Part shown: piece by piece, positions 11,434 to 37,924 of the stretch | Layout of the letters: the number at the start of each line of letters is the position of its first letter | Numbering within the stretch: the stretch's first letter is position 1 | Source of the DNA: Spirochaetia bacterium | Lineage (GTDB): Bacteria; Spirochaetota; Spirochaetia; SZUA-6; Fen-1364 | Reading direction: 5' to 3' | Assembly: GCA_035686185.1 (NCBI GenBank) | Contig: DASRZR010000096.1 | Span: 1 to 37,924, forward strand | DNA: 37,924 nt | The notes under the pieces: model-generated | The model's input: the letters and a program-made list of their open reading frames with translations, nothing else | Told to the model about the DNA's origin: nothing | Databases searched by the model: none | Made by a program: the position numbers and the translations under genes

Positions 11434-11467
11434 TGAATATCTCCGTTGGCCTGCCCGGACGCGGTGC

Positions 11468-11995: not shown

Positions 11996-12021
11996 GGCTG
12001 CATTCCTCCTGTGGCTCTTCT

Positions 12022-12384: not shown

Positions 12385-12440
12385 ACCCGTTTGTCCTCCT
12401 CGCCCGCAGCGCGTCCATTCGGAATGCGACGATTCCGATA

Positions 12441-12457
12441 AAGCAACGACCATGCCA
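12441..12457 (-). promoter_or_regulatory. Sigma-54 (-24/-12) promoter of the che operon
   Basis: The minus strand reads TGGCATGgtcgTTGCTT, with canonical GG-N10-GC spacing. It lies 58 nt upstream of the cheY ATG. Confidence 0.7.
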
Positions 12458-12567
12458 AGTCATGGCATGCCCAGATTTGCCGGGAACCTTGAAAAACCGC
12501 GGCAAAACAAGCAAAAGCGTTATGAGCAGCGCGCAGGAGCGCGCCGGGATCTACCTCCTGCCTCAAA

Positions 12568-12608
12568 GTGGAACGATACGTTCCACCCCGCGTGAACTAT
12601 GGAACAGG
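12568..12608. promoter_or_regulatory. Enhancer-like (UAS) module: perfect inverted repeat GTGGAAC-N5-GTTCCAC plus an extra TGGAACAGG half-site
   Basis: The palindrome is at 12568-12586, with its centre ~121 bp upstream of the -24 GG. The third half-site is at 12600-12608. Read on the minus strand: CCTGTTCCA-N13-GTGGAAC-gtatc-GTTCCACTTTGA. Confidence 0.5.
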
Positions 12609-13991
12609 CCTCCCTCCCGGTGGCCCGCTCTCAATTCCATATTTCTTCATTTTTCTCCACAACGTGTTCCGGCCCATGCGCAGCGCCTCGGCCGCGCGCG
12701 TCTGGTTGCCGTCCGCGTCCCGCAGCGCCCGCAGGATCGCCTCCCGCTCCGCGCCGTGAATCGTCTGGTCCTCGCGCGGGGCCGCCGGCAACGGCGCAGA
12801 GACTGTCCGCTCCCCCAGGGAGAAGATGGCGCGGAACTCGTCCGCCGAAATGACCGGCGAGGAGGAGAGGGTGACGGCCCGTTCAATGAGGTTCTCCAGC
12901 TCGCGCACGTTGCCGGGCCAGCCATGGGCAAGCGCCAGCTCCAGGGCCTCCGGGGCGAGACTCTGCGGAGAGCGGCCGAGCTTCGTGCCGTACACGGCCA
13001 GGAAATGACGGCACAGCGGCAGGATGTCGTCGCGGCGGTCCCGCAGCGGCGGGATCACAATGGGAATCACGTTGAGCCGGTAGAACAGGTCCTCCCGGAA
13101 CCTCCCGTCCCGGATCAGGTCCACCAGGTTGCGGTTCGTGGAGGCGAGGATCCTCACGTCCACGCGCCGCACCGCGGTGCTTCCGACGCGGCGGACCTCG
13201 CCCTCCTGCAGCACGCGCAGCAGCTTTCCCTGCAGGAGCAGGGGCATGTCCCCGATCTCGTCCAGCAGGAGCGTTCCCCCGTCGGCGTCCTCGAACAGCC
13301 CCTTCTTCTCCGTGGCCGCGCCGGTGAACGCGCCCTTGGCGTAGCCGAACAGCTCGCTCTCCAGGAGCGCCTCCGGCAGCGCGGCGCAGTTGATGGCGAT
13401 GAACGGGCGGGCCGCCCGGGGGCCGCGGAAGTGGATGGCCCGCGCGATCAGCTCCTTGCCGGTTCCGCTCTCCCCCTGGATGAGCACGGCGGAGTCCGCG
13501 GTGGCCACCATCTGCACCAGCTCCATCACGCGGCGCATGCCGGCGCTGGCCGCCACGAGGCCGGAAACGGAGTAGCGCTCGCCGACCTCCCGGCGGAGGT
13601 TCGTGAGCTCGCTTCGCATCGTGCGCCGCTCGATGGCGCGGTCCACCGTCAGCAGGAACTTCTGCGTAGAGATGGGCTTCGTGAGGTAGTCGAAGGCGCC
13701 CGCGCGCACCGCCTCCACCGCGGAGTCGATCGTGCCGTAGGCGGTGATCACGAGCACTTCCGGCTCGTACGGCCGGGCCCGGGCAAGGCGGAGGACCTCC
13801 AGCCCGTCACCGTCGGGGAGCATCAGGTCCGTGAGCACCAGCTCGAACTCGCCGGTCTTCAGCGCCTCCGCGGCCTCGCGCACGCCCTCCACGGCCAGCA
13901 CGTCGTGGGAATTGGCGGACAGCAGGTCGCGAAGCAGGCTCCGTATCGCCTCGTCATCGTCGACCACGAGGATACGATGGCCGCGTCCCAT
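12597..13991 (-). CDS. Sigma-54-dependent response regulator (NtrC-family bEBP: REC + AAA+ + Fis-type HTH)
   Basis: REC (RILVVDDDEAIR..LVLTDLMLPDGDG). AAA+ sigma-54 interaction domain (GESGTGKE, GAFTGA, ESELFGY). C-terminal HTH (RTRAAEALRMGRNTLWRKMKKYGI). Confidence 0.92.
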   Translation of the reverse strand: MGRGHRILVVDDDEAIRSLLRDLLSANSHDVLAVEGVREAAEALKTGEFELVLTDLMLPDGDGLEVLRLARARPYEPEVLVITAYGTIDSAVEAVRAGAFDYLTKPISTQKFLLTVDRAIERRTMRSELTNLRREVGERYSVSGLVAASAGMRRVMELVQMVATADSAVLIQGESGTGKELIARAIHFRGPRAARPFIAINCAALPEALLESELFGYAKGAFTGAATEKKGLFEDADGGTLLLDEIGDMPLLLQGKLLRVLQEGEVRRVGSTAVRRVDVRILASTNRNLVDLIRDGRFREDLFYRLNVIPIVIPPLRDRRDDILPLCRHFLAVYGTKLGRSPQSLAPEALELALAHGWPGNVRELENLIERAVTLSSSPVISADEFRAIFSLGERTVSAPLPAAPREDQTIHGAEREAILRALRDADGNQTRAAEALRMGRNTLWRKMKKYGIESGPPGGRPVP

Positions 13992-13995
13992 GGCC

Positions 13996-14373: not shown

Positions 14374-14476
14374 AGCGGCTCGTAGATAGTATGTATCACC
14401 CCGCCCAAAAACGCCAGTGTGCTCATTTGCTCGCCGACATCCGTTTGGCGGTGATACCTTGGGGCCGGGGGTGGTC

Positions 14477-14995: not shown

Positions 14996-15008
14996 CGCCG
15001 GCCGCGGC

Positions 15009-17204
15009 TTATTCGGCATCGACCGCGGCGGGCGGCTCTGTCGGTTGCTCCGACGGCAGCTCCGACACGGCCGTGGCGGCCCCCTCCCGGTCCAGTTGGA
15101 ACCGGCTCGCCAGCTCCCGCAGCTGCTGGGCCATGCCGGCCATCTCCTCCACGGAGGAGGCCATCTGCTCGGCGGCCCCGGCGGCCTGCTGCGTGATGTC
15201 GTTCACGGATTCAATGGCCTTGCTCACCTGGCGGGAGCTGGTGGACTGCTCCGTCGTGGAGGCGCGGATGCTCTCGCTCTGCTCCCGCAGGCCTTCCACG
15301 GCCAGGGCAATGGCGCGGATCGTTTCCGCCTGCAGATCGATTGACCTCTGCAGCATCGACACCATCTTCGAGGAATCCATCGCCCCCTGGATGATCTCGT
15401 CCATGGACCGGCCCGAGCCCTCGGCCAGCTCCACGCCGCGCTGGACCTGTTGAATCGTCTTCTTGATGAGCGAGCCGATTTCCTTGGAGGATACCGCGCT
15501 GCGGTCCGCCAGCTTCGACACCTCGTCGGCCACGACGGCAAACCCGCGGCCGTGCTCCCCGGCCCGGGCCGCCTCGATGGCGGCGTTCAGGGCGAGCAGG
15601 TTCGTCTGGTCGGCGATGTCGCCGATCACCGTGACGATGTCGGTGATCTTCTCCGAGCTCGCTGAAATGTCCTTGATGGCCGCGATGGCGTCCCTCACGG
15701 AGCCCACGCCATGCCGGGCCCGTTCCACGGAGCCTCCCGCGCTGTCGGCCACCCGGGCGAGCGTCTCGGAGACGGACGTTACGGAGTGCAGCATGGTGTC
15801 CATGCTCGTGGCGATGTCCGCCACCGTGCGGGACTGCCCCTGCGCGTTCTCCGCCACGTGGTCCACGGAGGCCGTGAGCTGCTCGACGGCCGCGGAGGTC
15901 TCTTCCAGCGTGGAAGCCTGGTTCTGGGCGCCTTCCGCCAGGTGCTGCGCCGAGCCGGCAAGCTCCTCGGTGCCCGCGGCGAGCTGGCTGGCACCGTCCT
16001 GGACCCGGCGCGTCATGTCGCGAAGCCCGTCCCGCATCCGGTTCAGCGAGCGCGCCAGCGCGCCGATCTCATCCTCCCGGCGCCCCACGTCCACGCTGGC
16101 CGTCAGGTTGCCGCCGGCGATCTCCTCCGCGAAGGCCGCCGCCTGCGCGAGCGGCCGGGAAATGGAGCGCGCCACGAGCAGCACCGCTCCGATGACGAGC
16201 AGCAGGGCCGCCGCGCCGACGGCCACGATTACGTCCCGCAGCATGGCGACGGGTCCCAGCACTTCCGCCTCCGGGATGTCGGCCTCCACGGTCCAGCGCG
16301 TGCCGGTGTCACCCACGATGAACGGCATCCCGATGGTGAGCATCGCCTGGCCGTGGGCGTCCTTGCGCTCCATCACGAACGGCTCCGACTTGTCGATGAG
16401 CGCCCGCAGCGCCGGATCCAGGCCGATCTCGGTCATCCGCCGCCCGACGATGAACGAGTCGTGCGCCGCGGCTACCGTGCCGTTGGAGGAATACAACGTC
16501 AGCGTGCCGGTGCGGTACAGCACGGCCGTCGATACCGTCCGCGCGATGGCTTCCAGGCTCAGGTGGACGCCTGCCACGCCGATGAACGACCGGTTGGCGT
16601 TGAAGATGGGCGCCGAGAGTGAGGTGGTGAGGGCCCCCAGCCCGTTGACCGCGGAGGCGGTGGGGTTCGTGACGGCCTGCCGCCCCGCGATGCGGGGGAT
16701 CTGGTAGTAGTCTCCCGCTCCGGCCCGGTCGTAACCCTCGAGGGGGCTCAAGACGCCGGCGCCGTGCTCATCACGGGTCCACAGGGGGATGAAGCGGCCC
16801 GTCGAATCGTGGCCGGCCTGCCCGGCGAAGCTCGCGTCCTTGCCGTCGAACGCGTTCGGCTCGAAGGCCACGTACGCGGCATAGATCCCGGGGCTGTGCT
16901 CGATGAAGTATTTCAGGATCGCGTTCGCCTGGCGCCGGCTCATGGCGGCGTCCGGGTCTGCAAAGCCCGCTTCGAACACCCGCGCCAGCGCCACCGCCTG
17001 GTCCAGGGCGTTCTCCAGCACGTTCTGCACCGCGGCGCCCTGCGCCTGCGCCGTTTCCCTGGCGTAGGCCACGGCGTTGTCCTTTGTGAACGCGTTCACC
17101 CGGAAGCTGATCAGCGCCACGATACCCGCGATGGAAAGCGCCACGCACCCGCTGATGAGGAGGGTCAGGCGCATTCCTATTCCCCTCGCGGACATGCTCG
17201 ACAT
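15009..17204 (-). CDS. Methyl-accepting chemotaxis protein with periplasmic dCache-like sensor and HAMP
   Basis: TM1, then a ~280-aa Cache-like domain ([33 protein letters not shown]), TM2, HAMP, and the conserved MCP hairpin ([41 protein letters not shown]). I set the start at ATG 17204 (GGGAGG 6 nt upstream) rather than the track's GTG 17234. Confidence 0.9.
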
Positions 17205-17257
17205 GGTCGTCCTCCCTCTCGCGGTCAGCACCACCCGGGATTGTCGGTTCAGCAGGA

Positions 17258-17344: not shown

Positions 17345-17899
17345 TTACTGCAGTGACAGGCTGAGAGCGCCCCGTGCCATGTGCCGGGGGATGAACGACT
17401 TCTCGGTTCCGACCGCGTAGATGACCTGCAGGTCCTTCTGGCCGTCCTTGATGTACGCGGACGGCTTCAGCTCGAGCTCCAGCGTGGTCTTTCCGCCCGC
17501 CACCTTGATGGCGTAGGCGACAACGGTAGCCGCCACGTCCGCGCCCACGTCCTTGTGAGAGTGCCCCGAGCCGGCCTGCGGCTTGAACTGCACCTTGCCT
17601 TCCTTGTCGACGAATCCCATGAAGATCGTCGAGCCGTCCATCCTCAGCGAGCCGAGGCCGAGGGCCACCCAGCCGGTGGAATCACCCACGGCCGCGAGGT
17701 ACAGCGCGTCCGCGGTCCTCCTGGCGTACACGGAGATGGAATCGAAGTCCTGGGAAAAGCTGTATTCAGCAGGGCTCACCACGCCGTCCACGGTTACCTT
17801 GCCCGTGGTGACGGGCAGCGACTTGGCCTGGGAAAAGGCCATTGCGCCGACGGCGGTGAGAAGCAGGAACGAAAACAACATTGAAAGAAAACGTCTCAC
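17345..17899 (-). CDS. Secreted DOMON-like domain protein
   Basis: Signal-peptide-like N-terminus (V/M)RRFLSMLFSFLLLTAVGAMAFSQA. The segment GWVALGLGSLRMDGSTIFMGFVD resembles the DOMON core (GWvaiGfs..M.gsd). The start is set at GTG 17899 (GGAGG 9 nt upstream); the track start is 17917. Confidence 0.6.
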   Translation of the reverse strand: MRRFLSMLFSFLLLTAVGAMAFSQAKSLPVTTGKVTVDGVVSPAEYSFSQDFDSISVYARRTADALYLAAVGDSTGWVALGLGSLRMDGSTIFMGFVDKEGKVQFKPQAGSGHSHKDVGADVAATVVAYAIKVAGGKTTLELELKPSAYIKDGQKDLQVIYAVGTEKSFIPRHMARGALSLSLQ

Positions 17900-17963
17900 G
17901 TTGGAACACCTCCGCACCCAAGATAATGGGCGGTGTTCGGCGCGGCAAACCCTGCCGCGAGCA

Positions 17964-19529
17964 TCACTGCGGCGCGGAGAGCGTCAGGACTTTCCCCGGC
18001 CGCAGGTGATCGGGGTCTCCCAACTCGTTCACCGAGCGCGTGCGGTCCAGGAAACCAGCCCAGGCCCCCCGGTCGGTCCCGCCGGGCAGGGAAGTGAAGA
18101 TCTTCCAGAGGCTGTCCCCCGGCTTTACGACGTAGGTCAGGGTGGGGGACGATGAGGGCACGGCCGGTCCGGACACGGAGACGGCCGGCGTGCCGGCCGC
18201 GGGCGCCGTTGTCGGGGCCGCTCCCGTGGGTGCGACCGCCGTGGCAGCGGGCGCAGCCGTGACCGCGGGGCTGGCCCCCGCGGCAACGTGGGATGGCGAC
18301 GGCGGGGCCCCAGAGCGCAGCCCGGCCGGCACTACGCCAAGCAGGATGGCCAGGATGACTGCAGCCAGGACCGTGGGCAGCAGCACAAGGCCGGACCCGC
18401 GGCCAAGTCTCGGGCGTGAAGGCACTGCAGGCACCGATTCGCGCGGCCGGGGCCGCCGGCCGGGGCTCTCATGGGCAGGAGCCGGCTCTTTCGATGCCGG
18501 AGAGTGTCTTGCGCGCGCCGGCGGATCTGCCCGGGCCGTCCGGCGCGGCCGGACGGCGGGGGCAGGCGCGTCAACTGCCGGCACCGTCTCGCGCGGCCGG
18601 GGCGCCTCGGCCCTCTGGCGACGGGGCGCGTGGGCGGCGGACCGCACGGAGTCACCGTCCGGCCACTCGCGCGCCTCCTCCCGTGATGGCCAGGCCGCGG
18701 CATCCTCCGCCGGGGTCCGCGAAGCCGGCGCGGACCGGCGGGAAGGGGGCCGCGACGGAGGACGCTTGGGTATCTCCGGAGCCGAGGCGCGGGCCTCCGC
18801 GATCGCCTCGTCGGAGAAGTACTTGTCCAGGAAATAGGAGGCGGAATCCCGGTCAAAGGCGCGCGCCGCCCGGGAAGGCAACGAGCTCACCTCCATGTCC
18901 AGCGAGCGCTCCTCCGCGGTCCTCACGGCCCGCGCGATCTCTCCGTATTCCTCCAGGGAGGCGCTGCCGATCCGTCCCCGCAGCTCCCGCGTGGGCAGGC
19001 TTCGCTTCAGCACGAGCGCGATGAGCTGGACGTGCTCGTTGCTGAGGTCGTCCCGGAGGGCGAGCAGGTACAGGTACAGGAGGACCCGGGGGTCCATGTC
19101 ACGGGCGAGCCGGTCCGAGATCTCGATGCTCTTGCGCACGAGCAGGCGCTTTTCCAGGTACGTGTACTGCGTGAGGTCGTAGAGAAGGCCCGACGGGAAC
19201 GGCGTCTCTCCCAGGAAAATCGCCGTGACCGCCAGGTCGAACAACGAGCTGCGGATACCTCCCGGTACGTACAGCGAAATGAAGTGCAGGATCCGGTGCG
19301 CGGAAAACCCGCCCAGGTTCATCAGGCACGCCACGAGGATCGCCGTCTCCGGGCTCACCCGACCGCGTTCCTTCAGCTTCTTTCTCAGGACCCTTTGGGA
19401 AAGGGCAATCTCTTCCGGCCCGATGTTCGCGGCGATATCCCAATAGAGGGAGAACGGATCGGCCGGCGACTGGAAAACGGCCTCGAGAAGCGATTCGAGC
19501 CGGGGTGAAAGCCTTTCCGCGCGCGCCAT
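17964..19529 (-). CDS. Bitopic membrane protein: cytoplasmic helical domain, Pro/Arg-rich disordered region, one TM helix, Ala/Pro linker, C-terminal LysM
   Basis: 521 aa. The TM helix is GLVLLPTVLAAVILAILLGVVPAG. The C-terminal LysM is TYVVKPGDSLWKIFTSL..LGDPDHLRPGKVLTL. I recognise no family for the N-terminal ~230 aa. Confidence 0.8.
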   Translation of the reverse strand: MARAERLSPRLESLLEAVFQSPADPFSLYWDIAANIGPEEIALSQRVLRKKLKERGRVSPETAILVACLMNLGGFSAHRILHFISLYVPGGIRSSLFDLAVTAIFLGETPFPSGLLYDLTQYTYLEKRLLVRKSIEISDRLARDMDPRVLLYLYLLALRDDLSNEHVQLIALVLKRSLPTRELRGRIGSASLEEYGEIARAVRTAEERSLDMEVSSLPSRAARAFDRDSASYFLDKYFSDEAIAEARASAPEIPKRPPSRPPSRRSAPASRTPAEDAAAWPSREEAREWPDGDSVRSAAHAPRRQRAEAPRPRETVPAVDAPAPAVRPRRTARADPPARARHSPASKEPAPAHESPGRRPRPRESVPAVPSRPRLGRGSGLVLLPTVLAAVILAILLGVVPAGLRSGAPPSPSHVAAGASPAVTAAPAATAVAPTGAAPTTAPAAGTPAVSVSGPAVPSSSPTLTYVVKPGDSLWKIFTSLPGGTDRGAWAGFLDRTRSVNELGDPDHLRPGKVLTLSAPQ

Positions 19530-19637
19530 GAATGCTTGTCCGGACGCTACCGTTTCGCCGCCGGATTGTCAAGGAAAACGGGGTTGCCGGTCAATTTTAC
19601 GTGCCGCAAGACCGAAATTAGCGATAAAGGGCGTGGA

Positions 19638-20498
19638 GTGCTGACAAAGACCATCAAGTACAGGACGGAGGGGCGCAAACGAATCACCGCCCACACGTAT
19701 CGCCGCAAGATACGTGGCGCGCTGCTGTCCCTGACGCGGAACGTGATCCTGTGCAACACGCCGGAGCACGTGGACGCCGCAGCCGCCCTGGCCCAGGTGG
19801 TCAGCGCGGATGGCATGAACAACCGCAACTACCTGCTGTTCCTCACGCTCCTGGAGACGAACCACCCCTTCGTGATCGACATCCTCGTGGGCCGGCGCAA
19901 CCCGTTCCTGCTCTTCTCCCCGATCAAGCCCAACTGGTTCCTCGTCAAGGAGACGTTCAGAATCCTCGCCAAGTTCAAGGGCAACGAACTGGCCGAGAAG
20001 GCGCTGCTGGCGCTCCTGGGGATCGTGCAGAACGCGTACAAGACCTCGAAGGACGGCTACAAGATCTACCCGCTGCGGATGTCGGACGTGTACAACATAG
20101 GCAAACACCTGGACAAGGAGCGGGACCAGCTCGACCCCCGCAATCGCCTGCTGCTGGAGATCCTGTTCGACATCTACTTCGTGGGAATCGACAGCGACAA
20201 CCGGGCCACCAAGCAGATCGGGATCAAGGCGAACGACATCCGGATGTCGTTCTTCGATCACACGAAGCGGATGGTGGATGCCATCCCGGACGTGCTGCTC
20301 GTCAAGGACATCATCCGCATCCCTCCCGCCGCGGTCTGCTTCAAGTGGGAGGCGCCGGAAGTTTCGCCGCCGGCGCTTGAGTCGCGGGAGCCCCCCGAGC
20401 TCAAGCTGGCCCTGAGGGAGCGGGCGCCGGCGCCCCGTTCTAAGAAAGCGCCGGCAAAGAAGCCAACCCCGCGCGGAAAGCCGCGGAGCCGAAGATGA
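19638..20498 (+). CDS. Paralog A of an unrecognised five-member family (basic N-terminal segment and Lys/Pro/Arg-rich C-tail)
   Basis: It shares all family motifs with B-E (NYLLFLTLL, FVIDILVG, IKPN, DGYKIY, DVYNIGKHLD, NRLLLEIL, IRMSFFDH). The track start at 19536 is a TTG only 7 nt from the divergent LysM ATG. GTG 19638 (AAGGG 6 nt upstream) fits the paralog N-terminal lengths better. The start remains uncertain. Confidence 0.8.
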   Translation: MLTKTIKYRTEGRKRITAHTYRRKIRGALLSLTRNVILCNTPEHVDAAAALAQVVSADGMNNRNYLLFLTLLETNHPFVIDILVGRRNPFLLFSPIKPNWFLVKETFRILAKFKGNELAEKALLALLGIVQNAYKTSKDGYKIYPLRMSDVYNIGKHLDKERDQLDPRNRLLLEILFDIYFVGIDSDNRATKQIGIKANDIRMSFFDHTKRMVDAIPDVLLVKDIIRIPPAAVCFKWEAPEVSPPALESREPPELKLALRERAPAPRSKKAPAKKPTPRGKPRSRR

Positions 20499-20519
20499 GC
20501 CGAAGCGCGAGAGAAAAGT

Positions 20520-20548
20520 TTGACAAGCGCATCCGTGAAGCATAGAAT
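20520..20548 (+). promoter_or_regulatory. Near-consensus sigma-70-type promoter TTGACA-N17-TAGAAT
   Basis: Read directly from the sequence: TTGACA at 20520-20525, a 17-nt spacer, and TAGAAT at 20543-20548. It begins 22 nt after the stop of paralog A and ~320 nt upstream of paralog B. Confidence 0.45.
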
Positions 20549-20626
20549 TGCAGACACCTGACTGGTGCAGGCGCGAAGGAAGCGGCTGCGGAACCGCACC
20601 GGTAGCAATCGCCGTCCTTGCAACTG

Positions 20627-20656
20627 CCTGTTCCAGTGTGGAACAAGAAGTTCCAC
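20627..20656. promoter_or_regulatory. Enhancer-like (UAS) module: CCTGTTCCA-N2-GTGGAAC-N5-GTTCCAC
   Basis: Perfect inverted repeat GTGGAAC-aagaa-GTTCCAC at 20638-20656, with its centre ~134 bp upstream of the -24 GG at 20781. An extra half-site is at 20627-20635, and another GTGGAAC is at 20716-20722. The architecture and flanks match the module at 12568-12608. Confidence 0.55.
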
Positions 20657-20779
20657 TTTGACGCACTGTTTGCTGCCTTGAAAAACGGGGGCGCCATGGT
20701 AGCGGCGCCCGGTGTGTGGAACACCGCTCGAAAAGGCCCGTTTCTCCTGGCACAGTTTCTCTGCCTTGCAACGGTGGGT

Positions 20780-20796
20780 TGGCATGAGCCTTGCTT
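20780..20796 (+). promoter_or_regulatory. Sigma-54 (-24/-12) promoter in front of paralogs B-E
   Basis: TGGCATGagccTTGCTT has exact GG-N10-GC spacing. It lies 72 nt upstream of ATG 20867 and is near-identical to the che promoter TGGCATGgtcgTTGCTT. Confidence 0.7.
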
Positions 20797-20866
20797 TGAA
20801 TAGTAGAGCCAGCCGCGTGGACTGGCAGGAAAGGGCGAGACACCGCGCTCCGTTGGAGAGAGGGAG

Positions 20867-21586
20867 ATGCTTCATTTTCCTTTACTGAAGTTCTGGAACG
20901 AGGACGAGCTGTACGCTCTGCAGGTCTCCGCGGTGTCGCGCCTGATGAAGGTGGACACTCCCTACGCGGTTGAGGCCACGGTGGAGATCGCGAAGTTCCT
21001 CTGTGACAAGGGCCTGGACTCGGACAACTATCCGCTGTTCCTGGAGCTGCTGCGGGACGAGAACCGCTTTGTCATCGAGGCGCTGATCGGGAAGAACAAG
21101 GCCTTTGACCTGTTCACCCGCGTGCAGCCCAACCCGTACATCATCGAGTTCTGTCTCACAACGCTGCGGTCCTATGCGCCGGGCGGCGTGAACGACCGCA
21201 CGCTGGAGATGATCTTCGGGATCCTGTACCGCAACTACCACAGCGCGCGGGAAGGCAACATGCTGCACCGTCTCACGATCGAGGACGTGAACGCCGTGGG
21301 CAAGTTCCTGGACAAGTCACGTGACCAGAACGACCCGATCAACCGCTTCATCCTCGACATCCTGGCCGACATTGCGGAGTACCGCTCCATCAACAACGAG
21401 GACCCGGCGCTGGACAAGAACTCCTCGCACGCGACGGCCATCCGCAACGCGTTCTTCGACACCCGCCGCTCCCTGTCCAGCGTGATGCCGGCGGAGATCC
21501 TGGTGAGAAAAAACTACGATGAAACTCTCGTGAAGCCGCGAAGCACGCGAAAGTTCACGGAAACCGCTAAACCGAAGGGGAAATAG
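20867..21586 (+). CDS. Paralog B of the unrecognised family
   Basis: 239 aa with family motifs NYPLFLELL, FVIEALIG, VQPNP, DVNAVGKFLD, NRFILDIL, IRNAFFDT. It has a short basic tail (KPRSTRKFTETAKPKGK). A purine-rich GGAGAGAGGGAG precedes the ATG. Confidence 0.88.
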   Translation: MLHFPLLKFWNEDELYALQVSAVSRLMKVDTPYAVEATVEIAKFLCDKGLDSDNYPLFLELLRDENRFVIEALIGKNKAFDLFTRVQPNPYIIEFCLTTLRSYAPGGVNDRTLEMIFGILYRNYHSAREGNMLHRLTIEDVNAVGKFLDKSRDQNDPINRFILDILADIAEYRSINNEDPALDKNSSHATAIRNAFFDTRRSLSSVMPAEILVRKNYDETLVKPRSTRKFTETAKPKGK

Positions 21587-21597
21587 GAGGCGAACCC

Positions 21598-22290
21598 ATG
21601 GCGCAGTTGGACGAGTTCAACAGGGAGGTGTGGTCTGACCAGTCCATCTTCCGGGTGGAAAACCACATCATCAACAACATCTTTGCCTGCCGCACGACGG
21701 ATGCGGTGGAGGCGGCCATCACCTACTCGGCGTTCCTGCGCAAGAGCGGGCTGACCAACGAGAACTACCCCCTGTTCCTGAAGCTGCTGGAGATGGACAA
21801 CCACTTCGTCATCGACTCGTTGCTGGGGACCACGGACCCGTTCCTGTTCCTGACGCCCATCCAGCCGACCAAGCACCTGGTGTCGACCTGCTTCCGCCTG
21901 CTCACGAACTGGCACCCGGGCGGAATCTACCCGAAGACGCTCGCCATCGTGCTGGGCGCCCTGCAGGCCGGCTACAGCTACGCCAAGGACGGCTACCGGA
22001 TCCACAAGGTCACGATCAACGACGTGAACAACCTGGGCAAGCACCTGAACAAGGAGAAGGGCCAGGACGAGTCGGTCAACCGCGCCATCCTGGATATCCT
22101 GGATCGCCTGGCCTCCCTCGAGGGGCAGGGCGATGACGAGATGGAGCTGATTGCCCGCCAGTGCAACGTGATCCGCGGCAACTACTTCGACAAGCGCCGC
22201 AAGATGGAGGATGCCATCCCGCAGGTCCTCCTGGTGAAGTCCGACTACCTCGTCAAAGAGGTGTTGCCGGGCAGCGTGTTCGAGGATTGA
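21598..22290 (+). CDS. Paralog C of the unrecognised family
   Basis: 230 aa with NYPLFLKLL, FVIDSLLG, IQPT, HPGGIYPKTL, DGYRIH, DVNNLGKHLN, NRAILDIL, IRGNYFD. GGAGG RBS. The gap after B is 11 nt. Confidence 0.9.
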   Translation: MAQLDEFNREVWSDQSIFRVENHIINNIFACRTTDAVEAAITYSAFLRKSGLTNENYPLFLKLLEMDNHFVIDSLLGTTDPFLFLTPIQPTKHLVSTCFRLLTNWHPGGIYPKTLAIVLGALQAGYSYAKDGYRIHKVTINDVNNLGKHLNKEKGQDESVNRAILDILDRLASLEGQGDDEMELIARQCNVIRGNYFDKRRKMEDAIPQVLLVKSDYLVKEVLPGSVFED

Positions 22291-22303
22291 GGGAGGCAGA
22301 AGC

Positions 22304-23155
22304 ATGGTTATCCTTGACAGGACCAAGACGTATAACGCGACGGACATCGCGGAGATCGAGAACAAGATGCTGAGCGGCATCCTTGCCTGCCGCACGCCGG
22401 AGGCCGTGGAATCGGCCATCACCTACGCGCACTTCCTGAACAAGACCGGCCTGACGGGGGAGAACTACCCGCTGTTCATCAAGGTGCTGGAGATCGGCAA
22501 CCACTGGGTCATCGACGCGCTCATCGGCAGCCGCGACCCGTTCCTGTTCTTCAGCTCCATCCAGCCGAACTACCAGCTGCTCACCGCCTCCTTCAACCTG
22601 CTGGCGGAGCGGCACCCGGGCGGGCTGTACGCGAAGAGCCTCTCCGTGGTGCTCGGGATCCTGCAGGCGGCCTACAACGTGCCGGTGGACGGGTACAAGA
22701 TCTACGCCGTGTCGGTGTCGGACCTGAACGCGCTCGGCAAGCACCTGGACGAGGAGGCCGGCCAGGAAGACTCCCTGAACCGCTGCATCCTCGACATCCT
22801 GGAAAAGGTGGCCCAGCTGGAAGGCCTGGACGCGACCAACCGGGACATGGAAGAGGTGGCCATCCACTCGAACGAGATCAGGAACTTCTTCTTCGACAGC
22901 ACGAAGCACCTGAACGAGGTCATCCCGCCGGTGCTCCTGGCGCGGATGAGCTACAAGGACTTCGAGATCCCGCCGCGCAAGCTGGTGGAGTTCACCAAGT
23001 CCAAGCTCGCCCAGGAAGACAAAGTAGCCAAGGAGCAGATCAACATCCGCGTCTCCTCCCGCGGCCAGGCGGCTGCCAAGGAAGCCCCGGCCCCCGCGGC
23101 GGCGCCCAGGAAGACGGGCAACGGCGGCGGCGCCTCGCGCCGCAGCAGCAAGTAA
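22304..23155 (+). CDS. Paralog D of the unrecognised family (with Ala/Pro/Lys/Arg-rich C-terminal tail)
   Basis: 283 aa with NYPLFIKVL, WVIDALIG, IQPN, HPGGLYAKSL, DGYKIY, DLNALGKHLD, NRCILDIL, IRNFFFD. It is closest to C by eye. GGGAGG RBS. The gap after C is 13 nt. Confidence 0.9.
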   Translation: MVILDRTKTYNATDIAEIENKMLSGILACRTPEAVESAITYAHFLNKTGLTGENYPLFIKVLEIGNHWVIDALIGSRDPFLFFSSIQPNYQLLTASFNLLAERHPGGLYAKSLSVVLGILQAAYNVPVDGYKIYAVSVSDLNALGKHLDEEAGQEDSLNRCILDILEKVAQLEGLDATNRDMEEVAIHSNEIRNFFFDSTKHLNEVIPPVLLARMSYKDFEIPPRKLVEFTKSKLAQEDKVAKEQINIRVSSRGQAAAKEAPAPAAAPRKTGNGGGASRRSSK

Positions 23156-23171
23156 CCGAACAAGCAGGCGC

Positions 23172-23205
23172 TCGGCGGCCCGGGAGTCTCTCCCGGGCCC
23201 GCCGA
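23172..23205 (+). terminator. Strong GC-rich hairpin between paralogs D and E (terminator, attenuator or processing site)
   Basis: TCGGC-GGCCCGGGAG-tct-CTCCCGGGCC-c-GCCGA forms a 15-bp stem with one bulge and a 3-nt loop. No clear U-tract follows (tgccttcc). Confidence 0.4.
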
Positions 23206-23227
23206 TGCCTTCCGGCGGGGTGACGGC

Positions 23228-23932
23228 ATGGATGTTCAGAAGCTGAAGGACGAGGCGAAGGTCGGCCACATCTCGGAGGAGTACGTCGACTTCCTCAAGT
23301 ACCGCACGATCACCGAGATCATGGAGTCCTCCACGCCCCGGGCGGCGAATGCCCTGTGGGCTTACGCGAGCTTCCTGAACCACCTGGGGATCACGCCGGA
23401 CAACTACCCGCTGTACATCGCCCTGCTGGCGAGCAACAACCGCTACGCCATTGACGCGCTCCTGGCCGGCCACCAGCCCGAGCGCTACCTGGACTGCGTC
23501 GCGCCGAACCCCTACATCGTGAAGTCCACGTTCGAGACGTTCTCCGAGCTGAAGAGCAACGAGATCTACGAGAAGTCCCTGCGGGTGTTCCTCGGGTTCC
23601 TGTACAAGGTGTACGCCTCGGCCCAGGAAGGCTACGCGATGTACCCGGTATCCATCGAGGAAGTCAACAGCCTGGGCAAGTTCCTGGACGAGTCCCAGGA
23701 ACAGGACTGGCCGCTGAACCGTGGGATCCTCGACGTGCTGGCCGCCATCGCGGACCTGGACATGCCGCACGAGGCCAACGTGGCAAAGCGCAACGTCGCC
23801 GCGCAGGCCGGACGGATCCGCTCCGATTTCTTCGACCACAAGCGGTCGCTGAAGCAGTCCATCACGGAAGTGATCCTGCAGAAAGCGCCGAATCCGACCT
23901 TCGGGACCCCCCCGGAATACACGTACGGCTGA
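23228..23932 (+). CDS. Paralog E of the unrecognised family
   Basis: 234 aa with NYPLYIALL, YAIDALLA, VAPNP, EGYAMY, EVNSLGKFLD, NRGILDVL, IRSDFFDH. Confidence 0.88.
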   Translation: MDVQKLKDEAKVGHISEEYVDFLKYRTITEIMESSTPRAANALWAYASFLNHLGITPDNYPLYIALLASNNRYAIDALLAGHQPERYLDCVAPNPYIVKSTFETFSELKSNEIYEKSLRVFLGFLYKVYASAQEGYAMYPVSIEEVNSLGKFLDESQEQDWPLNRGILDVLAAIADLDMPHEANVAKRNVAAQAGRIRSDFFDHKRSLKQSITEVILQKAPNPTFGTPPEYTYG

Positions 23933-24002: not shown

Positions 24003-25667
24003 GTGCTCGTCTGCCTGCTGGCCGGTTTCATGATCGTGGACGCCTCCTCGCCGTGGCTCCACGGCATCGAGGGATGGAGGATCGGTGGGGCGGCGTCGGG
24101 GGCCGCCTTTCTCATCTACGCCCTGGCGCTGTCCCGCCGGTGGGAGAAAGCGGTGCTGCCGCTGCACGCGCTGCAGCTTGCCGGCCTCATGGTGATGATG
24201 TGCGGCATCAGCGCGGAGCTGGCCACCCGGCCGGACTTCCCCACCTTCGGCCGCACCGGGCTCATCTCCTCCCTGCTCGTGTGCATCTTCGCGGATTTCA
24301 TCCTCGCCGCGGGGCTGCGGGGATGGCTGGCCGTCATCCTCCTGCCGCCGCTGGCGGCCATGGGGATCTATGTCACGGCCGTGGGTTCTGCGCTCTCCCC
24401 GACCGAGAAGTTGTGGCTCGTCAGCAACCCCCTCGCGCTCGCCATCGTCGTCTCCATCCTCGGACTGTACCAGGAGCACGCGGCCCGCAAGGAGCACCGC
24501 GGACGTGCCGCGCTGCGCCGTTCCGAGGAAGCGCTGCGGGCGGGGCAGGAGCACCACCGCGTGGAGCTGGAATCCATGCTGCAGCGGCTGGAGTTCGTCC
24601 TGGCGGCCGGGCACACCGGGCTGGACATCGTGGATGAGGACTACGTGGTGCAGTACGTGGACCCGGCCCGACGCGCCTCCCTCGGAGACCCGTCGGGCCG
24701 CACGTGCTACCGGTATTTCCGCGGTCTCACCGAGCCGTGCGTGGACTGTGCCATGCGCCGGGCGTTCGCCACCGGGCAGGTCCAGGTGATGGAGCAGACC
24801 GACGCGAACGAGTCACACCGCCCCGTGCAGGTGACGGCCATCCCGTTCCGCGGTGAATCCGGCAGCATGAGGGTGGCGGAGGTCGTGGTGGACATCTCCG
24901 AGCGAAAACAGGCGGAGGCCGATCGCCTGGAATGGGAGCGGCGCACCGCCGCCTCCCGGCGGATGGAGAGTCTGGGGATCCTCGCGGGGGGAGTGGCCCA
25001 CCACTTCAACAACCTCCTGACGGTGATCCTGGGGCACGCGGATCTCCTCCAGGACCTGCTGCCGGCCGACCCGGGTCCCCGATCTTCCCTGCGGGAGATC
25101 GTGCGCGCCGGACAGCGCTCCCGTGACCTCGTGCTGCAGCTCCTGGCGCTCGCGCCGGGCCATTCCGTGCAGCTTCGGCCGCTGGACCTCAACGAGGTGA
25201 TCCGGACGCGCCAGGAGGCCTTTCGGGCGGCCGTGCGCCCCGGGATTTCCTTCTCCTACGACCTGTGCGCGAACGCGGGGCCCGTCCAGGGAGACGCGGC
25301 GCGCCTCGGGGAGGCGCTCTTCCACCTCGTGCTGAACGCGCAGGACGCCATCGCGACGGACGGTCGGATAGAGATCTCCACGTCCCGCGCGGACCGGGAC
25401 TCGGCCCCCCGCGCCGCGCCCGCCCGCTGGATCCTGTTGAGCGTCCGCGACACCGGTTCCGGGATGGATCCGGAGACGGCGGAGAAGGTTTTCGACCCGT
25501 TCTTCACCACCAAGGAGCCCGGCAAGGGAACCGGCCTCGGTCTGCCCGTGGTGCGCGCCATCGTGAAGCAGCACCAGGGTGAGATCGACGTGGAAAGCCG
25601 GCCCGGCGCCGGCACGCGGTTCCTGCTCTACCTTCCGGTCGTGGATCAGACGACGGACGGCACCTGA
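24003..25667 (+). CDS. Membrane sensor histidine kinase (multi-pass N-terminus, PAS with Cys motif, HisKA, HATPase_c)
   Basis: About 5 hydrophobic helices in the first 150 aa. PAS-like segment with C-x10-C-x2-C (GRTCYRYFRGLTEPCVDCAMR). H-box ILAGGVAHHFNNLLTVILGHADLL. N/G boxes (LVLNAQDA, DTGSGMD, GKGTGLGL). Confidence 0.88.
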   Translation: MLVCLLAGFMIVDASSPWLHGIEGWRIGGAASGAAFLIYALALSRRWEKAVLPLHALQLAGLMVMMCGISAELATRPDFPTFGRTGLISSLLVCIFADFILAAGLRGWLAVILLPPLAAMGIYVTAVGSALSPTEKLWLVSNPLALAIVVSILGLYQEHAARKEHRGRAALRRSEEALRAGQEHHRVELESMLQRLEFVLAAGHTGLDIVDEDYVVQYVDPARRASLGDPSGRTCYRYFRGLTEPCVDCAMRRAFATGQVQVMEQTDANESHRPVQVTAIPFRGESGSMRVAEVVVDISERKQAEADRLEWERRTAASRRMESLGILAGGVAHHFNNLLTVILGHADLLQDLLPADPGPRSSLREIVRAGQRSRDLVLQLLALAPGHSVQLRPLDLNEVIRTRQEAFRAAVRPGISFSYDLCANAGPVQGDAARLGEALFHLVLNAQDAIATDGRIEISTSRADRDSAPRAAPARWILLSVRDTGSGMDPETAEKVFDPFFTTKEPGKGTGLGLPVVRAIVKQHQGEIDVESRPGAGTRFLLYLPVVDQTTDGT

Positions 25668-26836
25668 GCCAGGAGCCGTCGGACCAGCAGGGACGCACCT
25701 TCGCGGAAGTCCGCGGCGGGTGGAAGCAGGCTGACCACGAGGTACGAGCCGGCCGCGAAGTCGTAGAAATATCCCGGATGCACGAGCACCCCCTCCGCCT
25801 CCAGAAGGTCCACCGCGAAATCCTCATCCGCAATGGCAGGCGGCATCTCCACCACGGAGTACCATCCGCCCTCCCGCGGCAGGACCCTGCAGGACGCTAA
25901 CCCGGCCAGGAGGCGCTTCAGCTCGGCCTCGTTGCCGTCCACCCGATGCCGTATCTGCTCCTGGACGGGCCCCCGGGAACCGATGATCCGGGCCGCCGCG
26001 TGCTGGACCCCGGCCGAGACGGAGAGGAACGCGTCCGTGATGAACGCCAGCCTCTCCCGCGCCGCGGCCGCCTGGTCCGCGGGGCCGCCCACGTGAATCC
26101 AGCCGAGCTTCACCTGCGGAAGACCGACGAGCTTGGAAAGGCCGTTGAGCGTGAACGTGAGAGCGTCCCGGTTGCCGGCCGTCGTGGCCACCCTCCCGGC
26201 GTGCTCCCCGCTGGCGTAGTCGGAGAACACCTCGTCCACGATGAGCGCGCAGTCGAAGCGCCGGCACAGCGCGGAAAGCTCCTCCCGCTCGCGCGGCTTC
26301 AGGTAGGAGCCGGTGGGGTTGTTCGGGCTCACCACGACGATGGCGCGCGTCCGGGTGCTGATGCAGGACCGCACGTGCTCCTCGTCCACGACCCACCCGG
26401 TGGCGCCGAGACGCAGGGCGTACGGCACCAGGCGCACCGCCTCCAGCCGGGTCAGGACGTCCAGCAGCGGGTACCCCGGGGTCGGCACGAGCACCTCATC
26501 GCCGGGATCCGCCAGGAGCTTGAAGACGTCCGCATACGCCTCGCTCGTCCCGGTGGTGAGGAACAGCTCGTCGGGGCTTACGGAAACACCGCGGTCCGCG
26601 TAGTAGCCGGCCACGGCTTCCCGGGCGGAGCGCAGGCCCTGGGGATGCGGCTCGTAGCGCAGCGAGTCCGGGGACGCCAGCGCCGCGCGCAGCGCCTCCT
26701 CGTCCCGGGCAAACCCGCACCGCGTGGGGTTGGACTCCGTGAGGTCGAGGAGCGGGGCGCCGGCAGCCCGGCGCCGCTCGATGGCCGCCGACAGGCGGTT
26801 GGCGGAATGGTCGGATGGCACTCGTCGGGAAAACAT
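25646..26836 (-). CDS. Pyridoxal-phosphate-dependent aminotransferase, class I/II
   Basis: 396 aa with LDLTESNPT, SPNNPTGS, and the PLP-lysine region LNGLSKLVGLPQVKLGW. Its 3' end overlaps the convergent HK gene by 22 nt. Confidence 0.85.
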   Translation of the reverse strand: MFSRRVPSDHSANRLSAAIERRRAAGAPLLDLTESNPTRCGFARDEEALRAALASPDSLRYEPHPQGLRSAREAVAGYYADRGVSVSPDELFLTTGTSEAYADVFKLLADPGDEVLVPTPGYPLLDVLTRLEAVRLVPYALRLGATGWVVDEEHVRSCISTRTRAIVVVSPNNPTGSYLKPREREELSALCRRFDCALIVDEVFSDYASGEHAGRVATTAGNRDALTFTLNGLSKLVGLPQVKLGWIHVGGPADQAAAARERLAFITDAFLSVSAGVQHAAARIIGSRGPVQEQIRHRVDGNEAELKRLLAGLASCRVLPREGGWYSVVEMPPAIADEDFAVDLLEAEGVLVHPGYFYDFAAGSYLVVSLLPPAADFREGASLLVRRLLAQVPSVV

Positions 26837-26933
26837 GGGCGTCCCCGAGAGTGAAGCACGGGAACGCCGGTCGGGGAAAGTGGCGACCCCGCTGTCCCCT
26901 CGCCAGCCGTTTCGCTACATTGGGGACACATCG

Positions 26934-27785
26934 ATGGACGTGTACCTGCAGCTCATCAAACCGCGTATCACGACACTGATCCTCCTCGTTGCCATGGCGG
27001 CCTTTGCCATTGCGAGCGGCGGCTCCCTGGACTGGCGGCGTTTCATCATCATGACCCTGCTCACGGGGCTGCTGGCGAGCGGTATCTTCGCGCTGAACGC
27101 CTACCTGGAGAGGGACACCGATGCCCTGATGGGGCGCACGAAAGGCCGTCCCCTTCCCAGCCGCCGGCTGCCCGCGGGGCAGGCGCTGGCCTTCGGGGTG
27201 ATCTGCACGGTCGCCGCCGTCGTGCTGATGGGCGCACGGCTGGGCCTCGTGGTGGGCGCGCTGGGCGCGTTCACGTTCGTGACCTACGTGCTGGTGTACA
27301 CGCCCCTGAAGCGCCGCTCCGTGCTTCACACGGCCATTGGTGCTCTTTCCGGCGCCACGCCGCCGCTCATCGGGTGGGCGTCAGTCCACGGCACGCTGGA
27401 CCCCGGGGCCTGGGTGCTCGCCGGGATCATGTTCCTCTGGCAGGTCCCGCACTTCCTTTCGATAGAGTCCATGTACCGGGACGACTACGCGAAGGCGGGC
27501 ATACGGGTCCTGCCCGTGACCGAACCCACCGGCTCCGCGGCGGCCAGCGTCATGGTAGTGGCCCTTGGCGTGCTGCTGCCGTGGAGCGCCGCGCCGTTCC
27601 TGGTCGGTATCTCCGGAACGGTAGCTCTTGCCGGCAGCCTGGCGGCCGGCGCGGGGTTCCTTGCCGCCGGCATCGTGCACCTGCTGCGCCGGACAAAGAC
27701 AAGCGCCCGCGTTGTCCTGCGGGCCTCCATCATCTACCTGCCGGCCGTGTTCGCTTTCCTGGTGTTCGCGGGCGCGGCGCGCTAG
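26934..27785 (+). CDS. ctaB: Protoheme IX farnesyltransferase (heme O synthase)
   Basis: MDVYLQLIKPRITTLIL.., NAYLERDTDALMGRTKGRPLPS, YTPLKRRS, WQVPHFLS are UbiA-family CtaB/CyoE motifs. The track start at 26724 adds a non-homologous Arg-rich extension that overlaps the divergent aminotransferase. Confidence 0.88.
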   Translation: MDVYLQLIKPRITTLILLVAMAAFAIASGGSLDWRRFIIMTLLTGLLASGIFALNAYLERDTDALMGRTKGRPLPSRRLPAGQALAFGVICTVAAVVLMGARLGLVVGALGAFTFVTYVLVYTPLKRRSVLHTAIGALSGATPPLIGWASVHGTLDPGAWVLAGIMFLWQVPHFLSIESMYRDDYAKAGIRVLPVTEPTGSAAASVMVVALGVLLPWSAAPFLVGISGTVALAGSLAAGAGFLAAGIVHLLRRTKTSARVVLRASIIYLPAVFAFLVFAGAAR

Positions 27786-27825
27786 TCGGCCGTCTTTGCG
27801 CGGCCCGGCAGGCTGCCGGCTCGGA

Positions 27826-29139
27826 TCAGCCCAGCTCGGAGAAGGCAGCCCGGGCCGCGCGGAGGGTGGCGTCAATCTCGGAAGCCCCGTGCGCGGTGGA
27901 GACGAACCCGGCCTCGAACTGGGAAGGGGCGAGATACACCCCCTGCCGCAGCATTGCGGAGAACCACTTCCCGAACGCCGCCGTGTCCGACTTCTTCGCG
28001 CTCTCCCAGTCGGTCACCGGTTGAGCGGAAAAGAACGCGCCGAACATTGACCCCGCGTGAGCGGTCTGAAGCGGCACGCCAGCCGAGCGAGCCTCGCGCT
28101 CAAGGCCCTCGGCCAGCGCGCGCGCCGCTGATTCCAGCGTGTCCCACGCGCCGGGCCGGGTGAGCTCGGTGAGCGTGGCGATGCCGGCGGTCATCGCCAG
28201 CGGGTTTCCCGAAAGCGTGCCGGCCTGGTACATCGGCCCGGAAGGCGCCACGAGCTTCATGATGTCACGACGGCCGCCGTAGGCGCCCACGGGAAGCCCG
28301 CCGCCGATCACCTTGCCCAGCACCGTCAGGTCCGGCGTTATGCCGTAGCGCGCCTGCGCGCCGCCCAGGTGTACGCGGAATCCCGTCATCACCTCGTCGA
28401 ACACCAGGAGGCTGCCATCCGATCGCGTAAGCTCGCGCAGTCCCTGAAGGAAACCCTCCTGCGGCAGCACCACGCCCATGTTGCCGGCCACCGGCTCCAC
28501 GATGACCGCGGCGATCTGCCCGCGGTTCTCCGCGAAGATCCGGCGAAGGCCGGGCAGGTCGTTGTACGGGCAGGAGAGCGTGGCGGCGGTGACCGCCGCG
28601 GGCACGCCGGGAGAATCCGGCAGGCCGAGCGTGGCCGCCCCGGAGCCGGCCTGCACCAGCAGGAGGTCCGCGTGGCCGTGGTACGCGCCGATGAACTTCA
28701 CAACCTTTTCCCGGCCCGTGAAGGCGCGCGCAAGGCGCAGGGCGCTCATCACCGCCTCGGTTCCCGAGTTCACGAACCGGATCACCTCCACGCTCGGGAC
28801 AAGACCCCGCACGAGGCGCGCCAGGTCCAGCTCCAGCGGGCTGGGTGCGCCGAAGCTCGTGCCACGCGCGGCTGCCTGTGCCAGCGCGGAGACCACGGCG
28901 GGATGCGCGTGACCGAGCACGAGCGGCCCCCAGGAGAGCACGTAGTCGATGTAGCGGTTCCCGTCCACGTCGACGAGCCAGGCGCCCTCCCCGCGCTCGA
29001 TGAACAGCGGCTCTCCGCCCACGGCCTTGAAAGCGCGCACGGGAGAGTCCACGCCCCCCGGCAGGAGCGTCAGCGCCTCCGCAAACAGCGCCCGCGACCT
29101 GTCGGTGCGGAGCTTACGCGTATCGGCTTCTGTCTTCAC
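27826..29139 (-). CDS. hemL: Glutamate-1-semialdehyde 2,1-aminomutase
   Basis: [56 protein letters not shown] is a classic HemL sequence. The start is set at GTG 29139 (AAGGAG upstream). The track extension to 29499 overlaps hemY. Confidence 0.9.
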
Positions 29140-37619: not shown

Positions 37620-37924
37620 CTACCGCTTCTCCTTGTAGATGCGCGTGAAGGTCTTCCCCATGTCGGTGTACTTGTCGTCCTTCTCCGCGGCCGACGTGGC
37701 GGGGAACTTGCCGCGGAAGTACTCGTGGACGTAGTCGATCCGTGTGAGCAGGTTGTCCGCCACGGCGCGGGAGAGCTTCACCCGCTCCGGGTGGAACCGG
37801 AGGCACGTCTTGCACAGCTCCTGCAGCATCTTCTTGCCCACCTTGCGGAACCCGGAGAAGCGCTGGTCGAAGAACACCATGTCGTAGCCGCGGAAGTGCT
37901 CCACCTTCAGCGGCGTGAGGTAGC
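37620..37924 (-). CDS. Hypothetical protein, C-terminal fragment (5' end beyond the window)
   Basis: The reading frame stays open to the window edge (..YLTPLKVEHFRGYDMVFFDQRFSGFRKVGKKMLQELCKTCLRFHPERVKL..KEKR*). The track's 'M' at 37904 is an internal GTG. The amino-acid composition is protein-like (K/F/Y/D-rich). I recognise no family. Confidence 0.6.
   Translation of the reverse strand, partial: YLTPLKVEHFRGYDMVFFDQRFSGFRKVGKKMLQELCKTCLRFHPERVKLSRAVADNLLTRIDYVHEYFRGKFPATSAAEKDDKYTDMGKTFTRIYKEKR

Follow-up and report, generated by a model that had tools for sequence, protein, structure and literature searches.

A conserved and so far undescribed gene module of spirochaetes around a tandem array of five paralogues

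The 37,924-base contig DASRZR010000096.1, which belongs to a metagenome-assembled genome (MAG) of a Spirochaetia bacterium and is called here, at its full length, the window, carries a tandem array of five paralogous genes (A to E) that raise the question of whether they belong to a functional system, and of which kind. A previous analysis made from the letters of the DNA (the sequence-only reading) could not place the family, and regarded homologues and conserved synteny elsewhere as the test of a functional system. Both have been found, and the array belongs to a module that is real and conserved, has not been described before and extends well beyond the coordinates first considered. As shown by synteny, the array is genetically coupled to the genes of a kinase-like protein (X) and a predicted phosphoesterase (P), often to that of a larger protein (K), and to that of a membrane protein (L). 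A tentative reading of its mechanism, which we favour but would still not call probable, is that A to E constitute an envelope-tethered scaffold of several paralogous alpha-solenoid subunits, whose state would be set by the X/P pair.

The five plus-strand open reading frames (ORFs) lie where they had been noticed, A being given there in its longest form (19536-20498). Pairwise identities of 29-48% agree with the former estimate of one third to one half, C and D are indeed the closest pair (48%), and the alignment of A to E (~215 residues) keeps 27 invariant columns, among them those of motifs already recognised as common to all five (NYPL, GK.L, NR..L..L and IR..FD). Comparison with five related genomes gave ratios of nonsynonymous to synonymous substitution rates (dN/dS) of 0.04-0.30, lowest for C (0.04-0.08), ~0.14 for D and 0.12-0.30 for A, B and E; these values confirm that A to E are protein-coding and evolve under purifying selection. 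The tight packing described for B, C and D corresponds to spacers of 11 (B-C) and 13 (C-D) nucleotides (nt), and 72 nt separate D from E. The gene of A is divergent from that of L, and its true start is most likely the GTG at 19638 instead of the TTG at 19536, because the orthologue P0124 starts at the equivalent residue; the TTG start leaves 6 nt to the divergent gene. The region had also been described as more AT-rich than its neighbours, which holds for overall composition (G+C 0.61 versus ~0.70) but not for third codon positions, whose G+C (GC3) of 0.87-0.95 matches or exceeds that of the neighbours, with 0.94 for C, and C and D as the genes of highest GC3 in the window. The dip is therefore due to amino-acid composition, and a foreign origin of the array is rejected given its native GC3. 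In short, A to E are real and native genes under constraint. Moreover, the near-consensus sigma-70-type promoter, the strong Shine-Dalgarno sequences of the array, the top GC3 and the reduced synonymous divergence (dS) of C and D are suggestive of high expression. Three long antisense ORFs of 302-528 residues also overlap the array on the minus strand (19569-20843, 21514-22422 and 22253-23839); their codon-position G+C pattern is the wrong one for genes, and they are best regarded as high-G+C artefacts.

A HMMER scan of 1.84 billion protein cluster representatives yielded 217 relatives (clusters at 50% identity), nearly all of them from Spirochaetota and, where members are named, annotated as 'hypothetical'. 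The carriers comprise Marispirochaeta, Alkalispirochaeta, Sediminispirochaeta, Rectinemataceae, Treponematales and uncultured Treponema, as well as a cultured strain, Rarispira pelagica 38H-sp (DSM 100344; locus L001), whose D orthologue is WKV44_06270, and tblastn searches of 72,556 plasmids and 50,697 phages retrieved no copies of the array. In every group, C and D have 1:1 orthologues, which are 60-73% and 52-76% identical, respectively (for C, across the phylum), and D always follows C directly after a short spacer. A, B and E evolve faster, their counterparts being only 28-42% identical, and the A-type paralogue adjoins either L or the P-X pair. Each paralogue class is thus retained separately, and the constancy of this set of distinct paralogues, each conserved in its own right, speaks for roles that are not redundant; a hetero-oligomer would be the simplest interpretation.

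Some entries of this survey merit a separate comment. One orthologue of C (P0525, in the cluster of P0290) figures as an 'IS1 family transposase' in one source, a misannotation for which its sequence gives no support. The cluster also occurs in MAGs labelled as SAR324, Deltaproteobacteria, Myxococcota and Candidatus Cryosericum (L022-L028, L078; P0068), with C orthologues 60-93% identical, so that either these MAGs are mislabelled or mis-binned, or the cluster truly occurs outside Spirochaetota. In two loci (L072, on the complete chromosome OY759746.1, and L021), the triple formed by C, D and a third paralogue appears twice within ~8 kb with identical lengths and scores, which reflects either a tandem duplication of recent date or an error in the assembly.

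The conserved neighbourhood was delimited with a set of 78 loci from species-representative genomes plus loci found by exact protein look-up, whose ORFs were all classified with phmmer; 35 of the loci are well flanked, that is, with at least 4 kb on both sides. Across 84 related loci the clusters keep four or five paralogues, and this number was counted in 33 of the 35 well-flanked ones; P was present in 30, X in 29 and both in 28, and K and L were each detected in at least 15. Three layouts recur (p, paralogue; arrows indicate the strand). In the clade of the window the order is L< A> B> C> D> E> X< P<, loci of the Marispirochaeta type read p p p> K< X< P< p< L> p<, and those of the Treponematales type show p P X p p p K on a single strand, with short gaps and an overlap of a few nt between P and X. 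This phylum-wide synteny looks vertically inherited. The divergent LysM-like membrane protein, L, which had been described as a flank of the array together with a downstream histidine kinase, is a recurrent partner across loci. Both flanks exist in the window, but the histidine kinase, the che cluster and the enhancer-binding protein, for which the question of a constant neighbourhood had been raised, proved to be lineage-specific and confined to a narrow clade.

Of the two most frequent partners, X (~306 residues) showed no relative by sequence in Pfam, NCBIfam or the PDB. Its AlphaFold2 (AF2) model, with a predicted local distance difference test (pLDDT) of 88.6 and a predicted template modelling score (pTM) of 0.87, matches PI4KIIalpha (4hnd_A), Helicobacter pylori CtkA (3akj_A) and HipA (3tpv) with Foldseek probability 1.0 and template modelling scores (TM-scores) of 0.44-0.50. 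Moreover, K73, the segment D151-N158 (DEDRNPNN), which resembles a catalytic loop, and D175 in an ID(Y/F) motif are invariant in 28 sequences. With such features, X can be classed from its model as an atypical kinase with a protein-kinase-like fold in the PI4KII/CtkA/HipA branch. P scores 45.8 and 54.5 bits with the Pfam family PF00149 (Metallophos), whose gathering cut-off is 21.5, and contains GDLHG and GNHD motifs, which identifies it as a predicted calcineurin-like metallophosphoesterase.

The HipA-like fold of X and the tandem disposition of the paralogues could also recall a defence, toxin-antitoxin or immunity array, with X as a toxin kinase, P as its phosphatase antidote and A to E as immunity-like proteins, the latter being one of the proposals of the sequence-only reading. 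This explanation is largely refuted and hardly credible. PADLOC and PHROGs gave no match, phages and plasmids no copies, and the neighbours no HipB-like helix-turn-helix gene, toxin domain or toxin gene; codon usage is native; and a copy number fixed at four or five in nearly all loci, 1:1 orthology, dN/dS values down to 0.04 in C and a vertical-looking synteny across the phylum are not those of an immunity-type array.

The same fold matches bear on another explanation, in which X would be a PI4KII-like membrane-lipid kinase and P the opposing lipid phosphatase, and the paralogues, with their basic tails, would recruit or orient the enzyme at the membrane together with a membrane-anchored K. 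Eukaryotic phosphatidylinositol-kinase complexes use solenoid scaffolds, which offers an analogy. PI4KIIalpha is the best fold match of X, A and its counterparts carry basic tails, the C-terminus of K is amphipathic and L is a membrane protein, all of which would fit; but CtkA and HipA, both of them protein kinases, match X equally well, no lipid substrate can be inferred, and no lipid-synthesis gene is consistently linked in the neighbourhoods, so that this explanation seems quite unlikely to us.

The two remaining partners are larger. K has ~650-730 residues and a weak similarity to Hanks-type and MADS6 kinases; in the Marispirochaeta type it ends in an amphipathic helix, and in the Marispirochaeta copy its catalytic-loop position reads HHN, which is taken as a sign of a pseudokinase. 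The idea that this protein of ~700 residues is a spirochaetal cytoplasmic-filament protein found no support, the weak kinase-like similarity being all that it shows, and was discarded. L, which is usually divergent from the A-type paralogue, has a conserved architecture with a cytoplasmic helical N-domain of ~200 residues, a disordered Pro/Arg-rich linker, a single transmembrane segment (around residues 375-410) and a periplasmic LysM-like C-domain. Its match to Pfam LysM (whole-protein E-value 3.4e-5; 24.2 bits, cut-off 20.9) covers a partial stretch only, and distant orthologues give no Pfam match, yet their C-domains align with that of L in the window. The N-domain of L showed no relative in Pfam or the PDB, and the possibility that it is a further paralogue of A to E was rejected (hhalign E-value 0.16).

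As for the paralogues themselves, the former statement that the family cannot be placed is upheld by every library searched, either with sequence profiles or with structures. Pfam-A 2025, NCBIfam 20.0, PHROGs v4 and PADLOC 2.0 returned sub-threshold noise for A to E, no Pfam family matched more than two of 68 diverse members, and PDB searches with profiles from 5 and from 68 sequences gave no match; a literature search found no description of the family either. No transmembrane segment or signal peptide had been seen in any of the five, in agreement with a maximum 19-residue hydropathy below 1.6. The AF2 model of C (pLDDT 87, pTM 0.84) is all-helical and solenoid-like. Foldseek comparison of this model with the PDB and BFVD gave nothing at an E-value of 0.001 or less; the weak PDB neighbours are armadillo (ARM), TOG and HEAT domains and designed helical repeats (TM-scores up to 0.47, best E-value 0.2), the best ARM-like match being 8qzn (query-normalised TM-score 0.47, probability 0.96, E-value 0.3). 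Self-comparison of the family profile with hhalign detected no internal repeats of ~40 residues, only the trivial diagonal and a next alignment with an E-value of 0.72. Near-invariant positions in the alignment of 68 sequences are restricted to Y126, G132, K148, L150 and D198.

Since helical-repeat scaffolds of the type of the PP2A A subunit are among those weak neighbours, the paralogues could also be imagined as interchangeable regulatory or targeting subunits of P, each directing it (and X) to a different substrate in a PP2A-like holoenzyme. P is the most often linked partner, and A, B and E diverge fast around a conserved core, both of which would speak for it; but the fold matches are not significant (E-values above 0.2, TM-scores below 0.5), P lacks the canonical GDxVDRG motif, and alternative subunits would need no fixed set with 1:1 orthology, which makes this arrangement distinctly improbable.

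Less remote is a cytoskeletal or structural polymer built by the paralogues under the inner membrane, anchored by L to peptidoglycan and regulated in its assembly by X and P. The signs of high expression, the very strong conservation of C and D and the span of L from cytoplasm to peptidoglycan are consistent with it, the conserved C-terminal motif of C (SDY..KE..P..F) could dock onto a neighbouring subunit, and designed helical filaments and solenoids appear among the weak Foldseek neighbours. We nevertheless consider it unlikely: there is no similarity to known bacterial filament formers, five distinct subunits would be unusual, and an orthologue of C lies on a small contig binned to a non-spiral, non-motile member of Sphaerochaetaceae (L048), a binning that is itself uncertain.

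The tails of the paralogues had been described as Lys/Arg/Pro/Ala-rich in A, B and D. This is correct for A, a basic protein (isoelectric point 10.1) with a Lys/Pro/Ala/Arg-rich C-terminal tail, and for D, but not for B, whose tail is short. A long basic tail is frequent in the A-type paralogue, and a Lys/Pro/Ala-rich one also occurs in the lone paralogue of the Treponematales-type loci. Such histone-H1-like extensions in A, D and that lone paralogue could suggest binding to polyanions, either the nucleoid, RNA or polyphosphate. We hold this for very improbable: the tails are not conserved, that of one D orthologue is extremely acidic within a variable class, C, B and E carry none, and conservation resides in the acidic solenoid core, with isoelectric points of 4.9-6.1 in B to E.

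Of these explanations, the one we tentatively favour remains the envelope-tethered scaffold. In this model, A to E would be subunits of a spirochaete-specific cytoplasmic module, with C and D as its conserved core and A, B and E as faster-evolving accessory alpha-solenoid proteins, some of them with basic low-complexity tails. At the inner membrane, the paralogues would form a hetero-oligomeric scaffold that L would tether to the envelope, and the X/P kinase-phosphatase pair would set the state of the scaffold by acting on the phosphorylation of either the paralogues or a bound client. In the genome of the window, the output of a che-like pathway would probably raise the expression of B to E through the predicted sigma-54 promoter that this genome has gained. 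Several observations weigh against this model. K and L were found in only ~40% of the well-flanked loci, partly a limit of sensitivity. In the window, X and P do not stand beside the array but are displaced by ~13.7 kb and run off the window end, which is the reason why they escaped the sequence-only reading. The substrate of X could be a lipid or a small molecule instead of a protein, and the alignment of 68 sequences contains no family-wide conserved Ser or Thr. Finally, three apparent fusions of two paralogues (P0001, P0002 and P0003; 360-443 residues, on short contigs) were rejected as Rosetta-stone proteins because their ends look like low-complexity, frameshift-like junk; they are probably products of frameshift or indel errors and lend no fusion support.

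Table 1. Features of the window (positions in the 37,924-base contig)
Feature	Position	Strand	Remarks
Paralogue A	19638..20498	+	286 residues from GTG 19638 (most likely start); longest ORF from TTG 19536
Paralogue B	20867..21586	+	239 residues; first gene of the B-E operon; P0004 = VFI08_03300
Paralogue C	21598..22290	+	230 residues; most conserved of the five
Paralogue D	22304..23155	+	283 residues; second conserved core member; variable low-complexity C-terminal tail
Paralogue E	23228..23932	+	234 residues; fast-evolving; P0099 = VFI08_03315
L	17964..19529	-	Bitopic membrane protein; usually divergent from the A-type paralogue
X, C-terminal part	37626..37922	-	Gene continues past the right window end
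Predicted sigma-70-type promoter	20520..20548	+	TTGACA-17-TAGAAT; just 3' of the A stop; near-consensus
Predicted enhancer (upstream activating sequence)	20638-20656	+	GTGGAAC-N5-GTTCCAC; exact palindrome; degenerate copy before it, 20618-20636
Predicted sigma-54 promoter	20780..20795	+	TGGCATGAGCCTTGCT (TGGCAT-N5-TTGCT); 71 nt upstream of the B ATG
Predicted second enhancer-promoter pair	12442..12586	-	Palindrome GTGGAAC-N5-GTTCCAC, 12568-12586; sigma-54 site TGGCATGGTCGTTGCT, 12457-12442
NtrC-type bacterial enhancer-binding protein (bEBP)	12597..13991	-	REC, sigma-54 AAA+ and HTH_8 domains; candidate activator of both sigma-54 promoters
Membrane histidine kinase	24003..25667	+	PAS-HisKA-HATPase; downstream of E; only in a sub-clade (window, L007, L010)
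Secreted DOMON-like protein	17345..17917	-	Adjoins L; only in the clade of the window

Regarding the control of B to E in this genome, two promoters can be predicted upstream of B (Table 1), from which transcription would be expected to start near 20555 (sigma-70) and 20807 (sigma-54). The sigma-70-type promoter is conserved in the relatives L007, L010 and L011 and is presumed to be the constitutive one. The sigma-54 promoter that had been ascribed to the array appears to be real, since it combines the expected elements (-24 GG and -12 GC) and spacing with an upstream palindromic enhancer (~125 nt away) and an activator of the bEBP type encoded in the same window. It sits in an inserted stretch of ~250 nt that most relatives lack. 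The palindrome has only two exact copies in the window, where the calculated chance expectation of one is ~3e-4, and seven matches with up to three mismatches, versus a mean of 1.35 after shuffling. Its twin lies 11 nt past the stop of the bEBP gene and ~110 nt upstream of TGGCATGGTCGTTGCT, the only other one-mismatch sigma-54 site of the window, which precedes the gene of a CheY-like response regulator (ATG at ~12385). With such a shared palindrome, the che-like pathway may well have a small sigma-54 regulon, and the twin beside the bEBP gene, given that chance expectation, makes it very probable that B to E belong to the regulon of this activator. The proposed co-regulation with the chemosensory pathway is thus plausible here, where the array and the bEBP-side promoter have the exact enhancer in common. 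Sigma-54 control as a family-wide trait was rejected, as L008 is the only relative with a sigma-54 site before B, and the che-pathway link is best understood as a local acquisition and not a property of the family. In L008 (4774-5071), a long spacer between A and B contains a sigma-54-like site (TGGCATGGCACTTGCA) at 38 nt from B, along with several differently arranged GTTCCA repeats, which may represent an independent or diverged capture. The interval from the enhancer to the sigma-54 promoter of the window also contains a G+C-rich perfect hairpin (GGGCGCC-ATGGTAGC-GGCGCCC, 20689-20710), with no T-run on the plus strand, which could be either a structure of the sigma-70 leader or a protein-binding site.

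The rest of the window is occupied by two large blocks. To the left of L and of its DOMON-like neighbour, a complete che-like cluster (626-17234) encodes CheW, a REC-HD-GYP-type protein, CheB, CheR, CheD, a CheA-CheW fusion, two REC proteins, the NtrC-type bEBP and a dCache MCP, together with a HEAT-repeat adenylate/guanylate cyclase (626-3814) and a DJ-1/PfpI gene; by its gene content, it looks like a chemosensory pathway with transcriptional output. To the right, the ~13.7 kb that separate E from X contain the PAS histidine kinase, aminotransferases, UbiA and a heme-synthesis cluster. The block at 26724-37579 comprises a UbiA prenyltransferase, HemL-like and protoporphyrinogen oxidase-like proteins, ferrochelatase, UroD, ALAD, a HemC/HemD fusion and GluTR, and it looks inserted or rearranged because X and P directly follow E in relatives. 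An Rfam scan of the whole window gave no match.

Spirochaetes have an unusual cell architecture and many conserved genes without an assigned function. A module of eight to ten genes, kept under strong constraint in many genera and containing at least three protein families without relatives in any curated library, points to an undescribed cellular function. With slightly more doubt than the scaffold model itself, it may be conjectured that A to E, X, P, K and L make up a machine of free-living spirochaetes that is specific to the phylum and has gone unrecognised so far, namely a phosphorylation-controlled, envelope-tethered alpha-solenoid assembly that would act as a new signalling hub or cytoskeletal element. 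In any case, the module offers a rare bacterial kinase of the PI4KII/CtkA/HipA type, as predicted from its model, linked to a dedicated phosphoesterase outside a toxin-antitoxin setting, as well as a clean candidate case of regulatory capture, in which a sigma-54 enhancer-promoter cassette would have been inserted behind a conserved sigma-70 promoter. The existence of a cultured carrier, R. pelagica 38H-sp, makes these hypotheses directly testable.

A last question is which known systems resemble this module. Chemosensory pathways with transcriptional output have been described in bacteria, e.g. the Che3/CrdA pathway of Myxococcus. The predicted regulatory segment before B is like NtrC-type sigma-54 units in that a TGGCAT-N5-TTGCT promoter lies 110-125 nt downstream of a palindrome of the 7-N5-7 type, with one copy beside a REC-AAA+-HTH_8 activator in the che cluster, but it is present only in this genome and, in another form, in L008, as a regulatory add-on and not a family trait. 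The paralogues resemble ARM, HEAT and TOG alpha-solenoids in the all-helical, solenoid look of the C model and in its weak nearest neighbours, and differ from them in the lack of any significant superposition, of a recurrent Pfam repeat family and of internal repeats; they can be likened, from this model, to the alpha-solenoid fold class but not filed as a member of it. X agrees with HipA, CtkA and PI4KIIalpha in its predicted fold, its invariant Lys, its Asp/Asn-rich loop motif and its ID(Y/F) motif, although its TM-scores of only 0.44-0.50 come without a match at the sequence level and no HipB partner accompanies it. A parallel for the whole module is one of organisation. The stressosome of Bacillus brings together paralogous scaffold subunits (RsbR paralogues and RsbS), the RsbT kinase and the RsbX phosphatase. 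No homology relates the two systems: STAS and globin domains, a GHKL kinase and PP2C are absent from the paralogues, X, P, K and L, X is PI4KII/CtkA/HipA-like and not GHKL, P is a Metallophos and not a PP2C protein, and no sigma-factor partner-switching genes are linked to the module. The likeness would thus be one of logic only, that of several scaffold subunits, encoded together and paralogous to one another, with a core that is conserved and parts that vary, accompanied by a dedicated kinase and a phosphatase.

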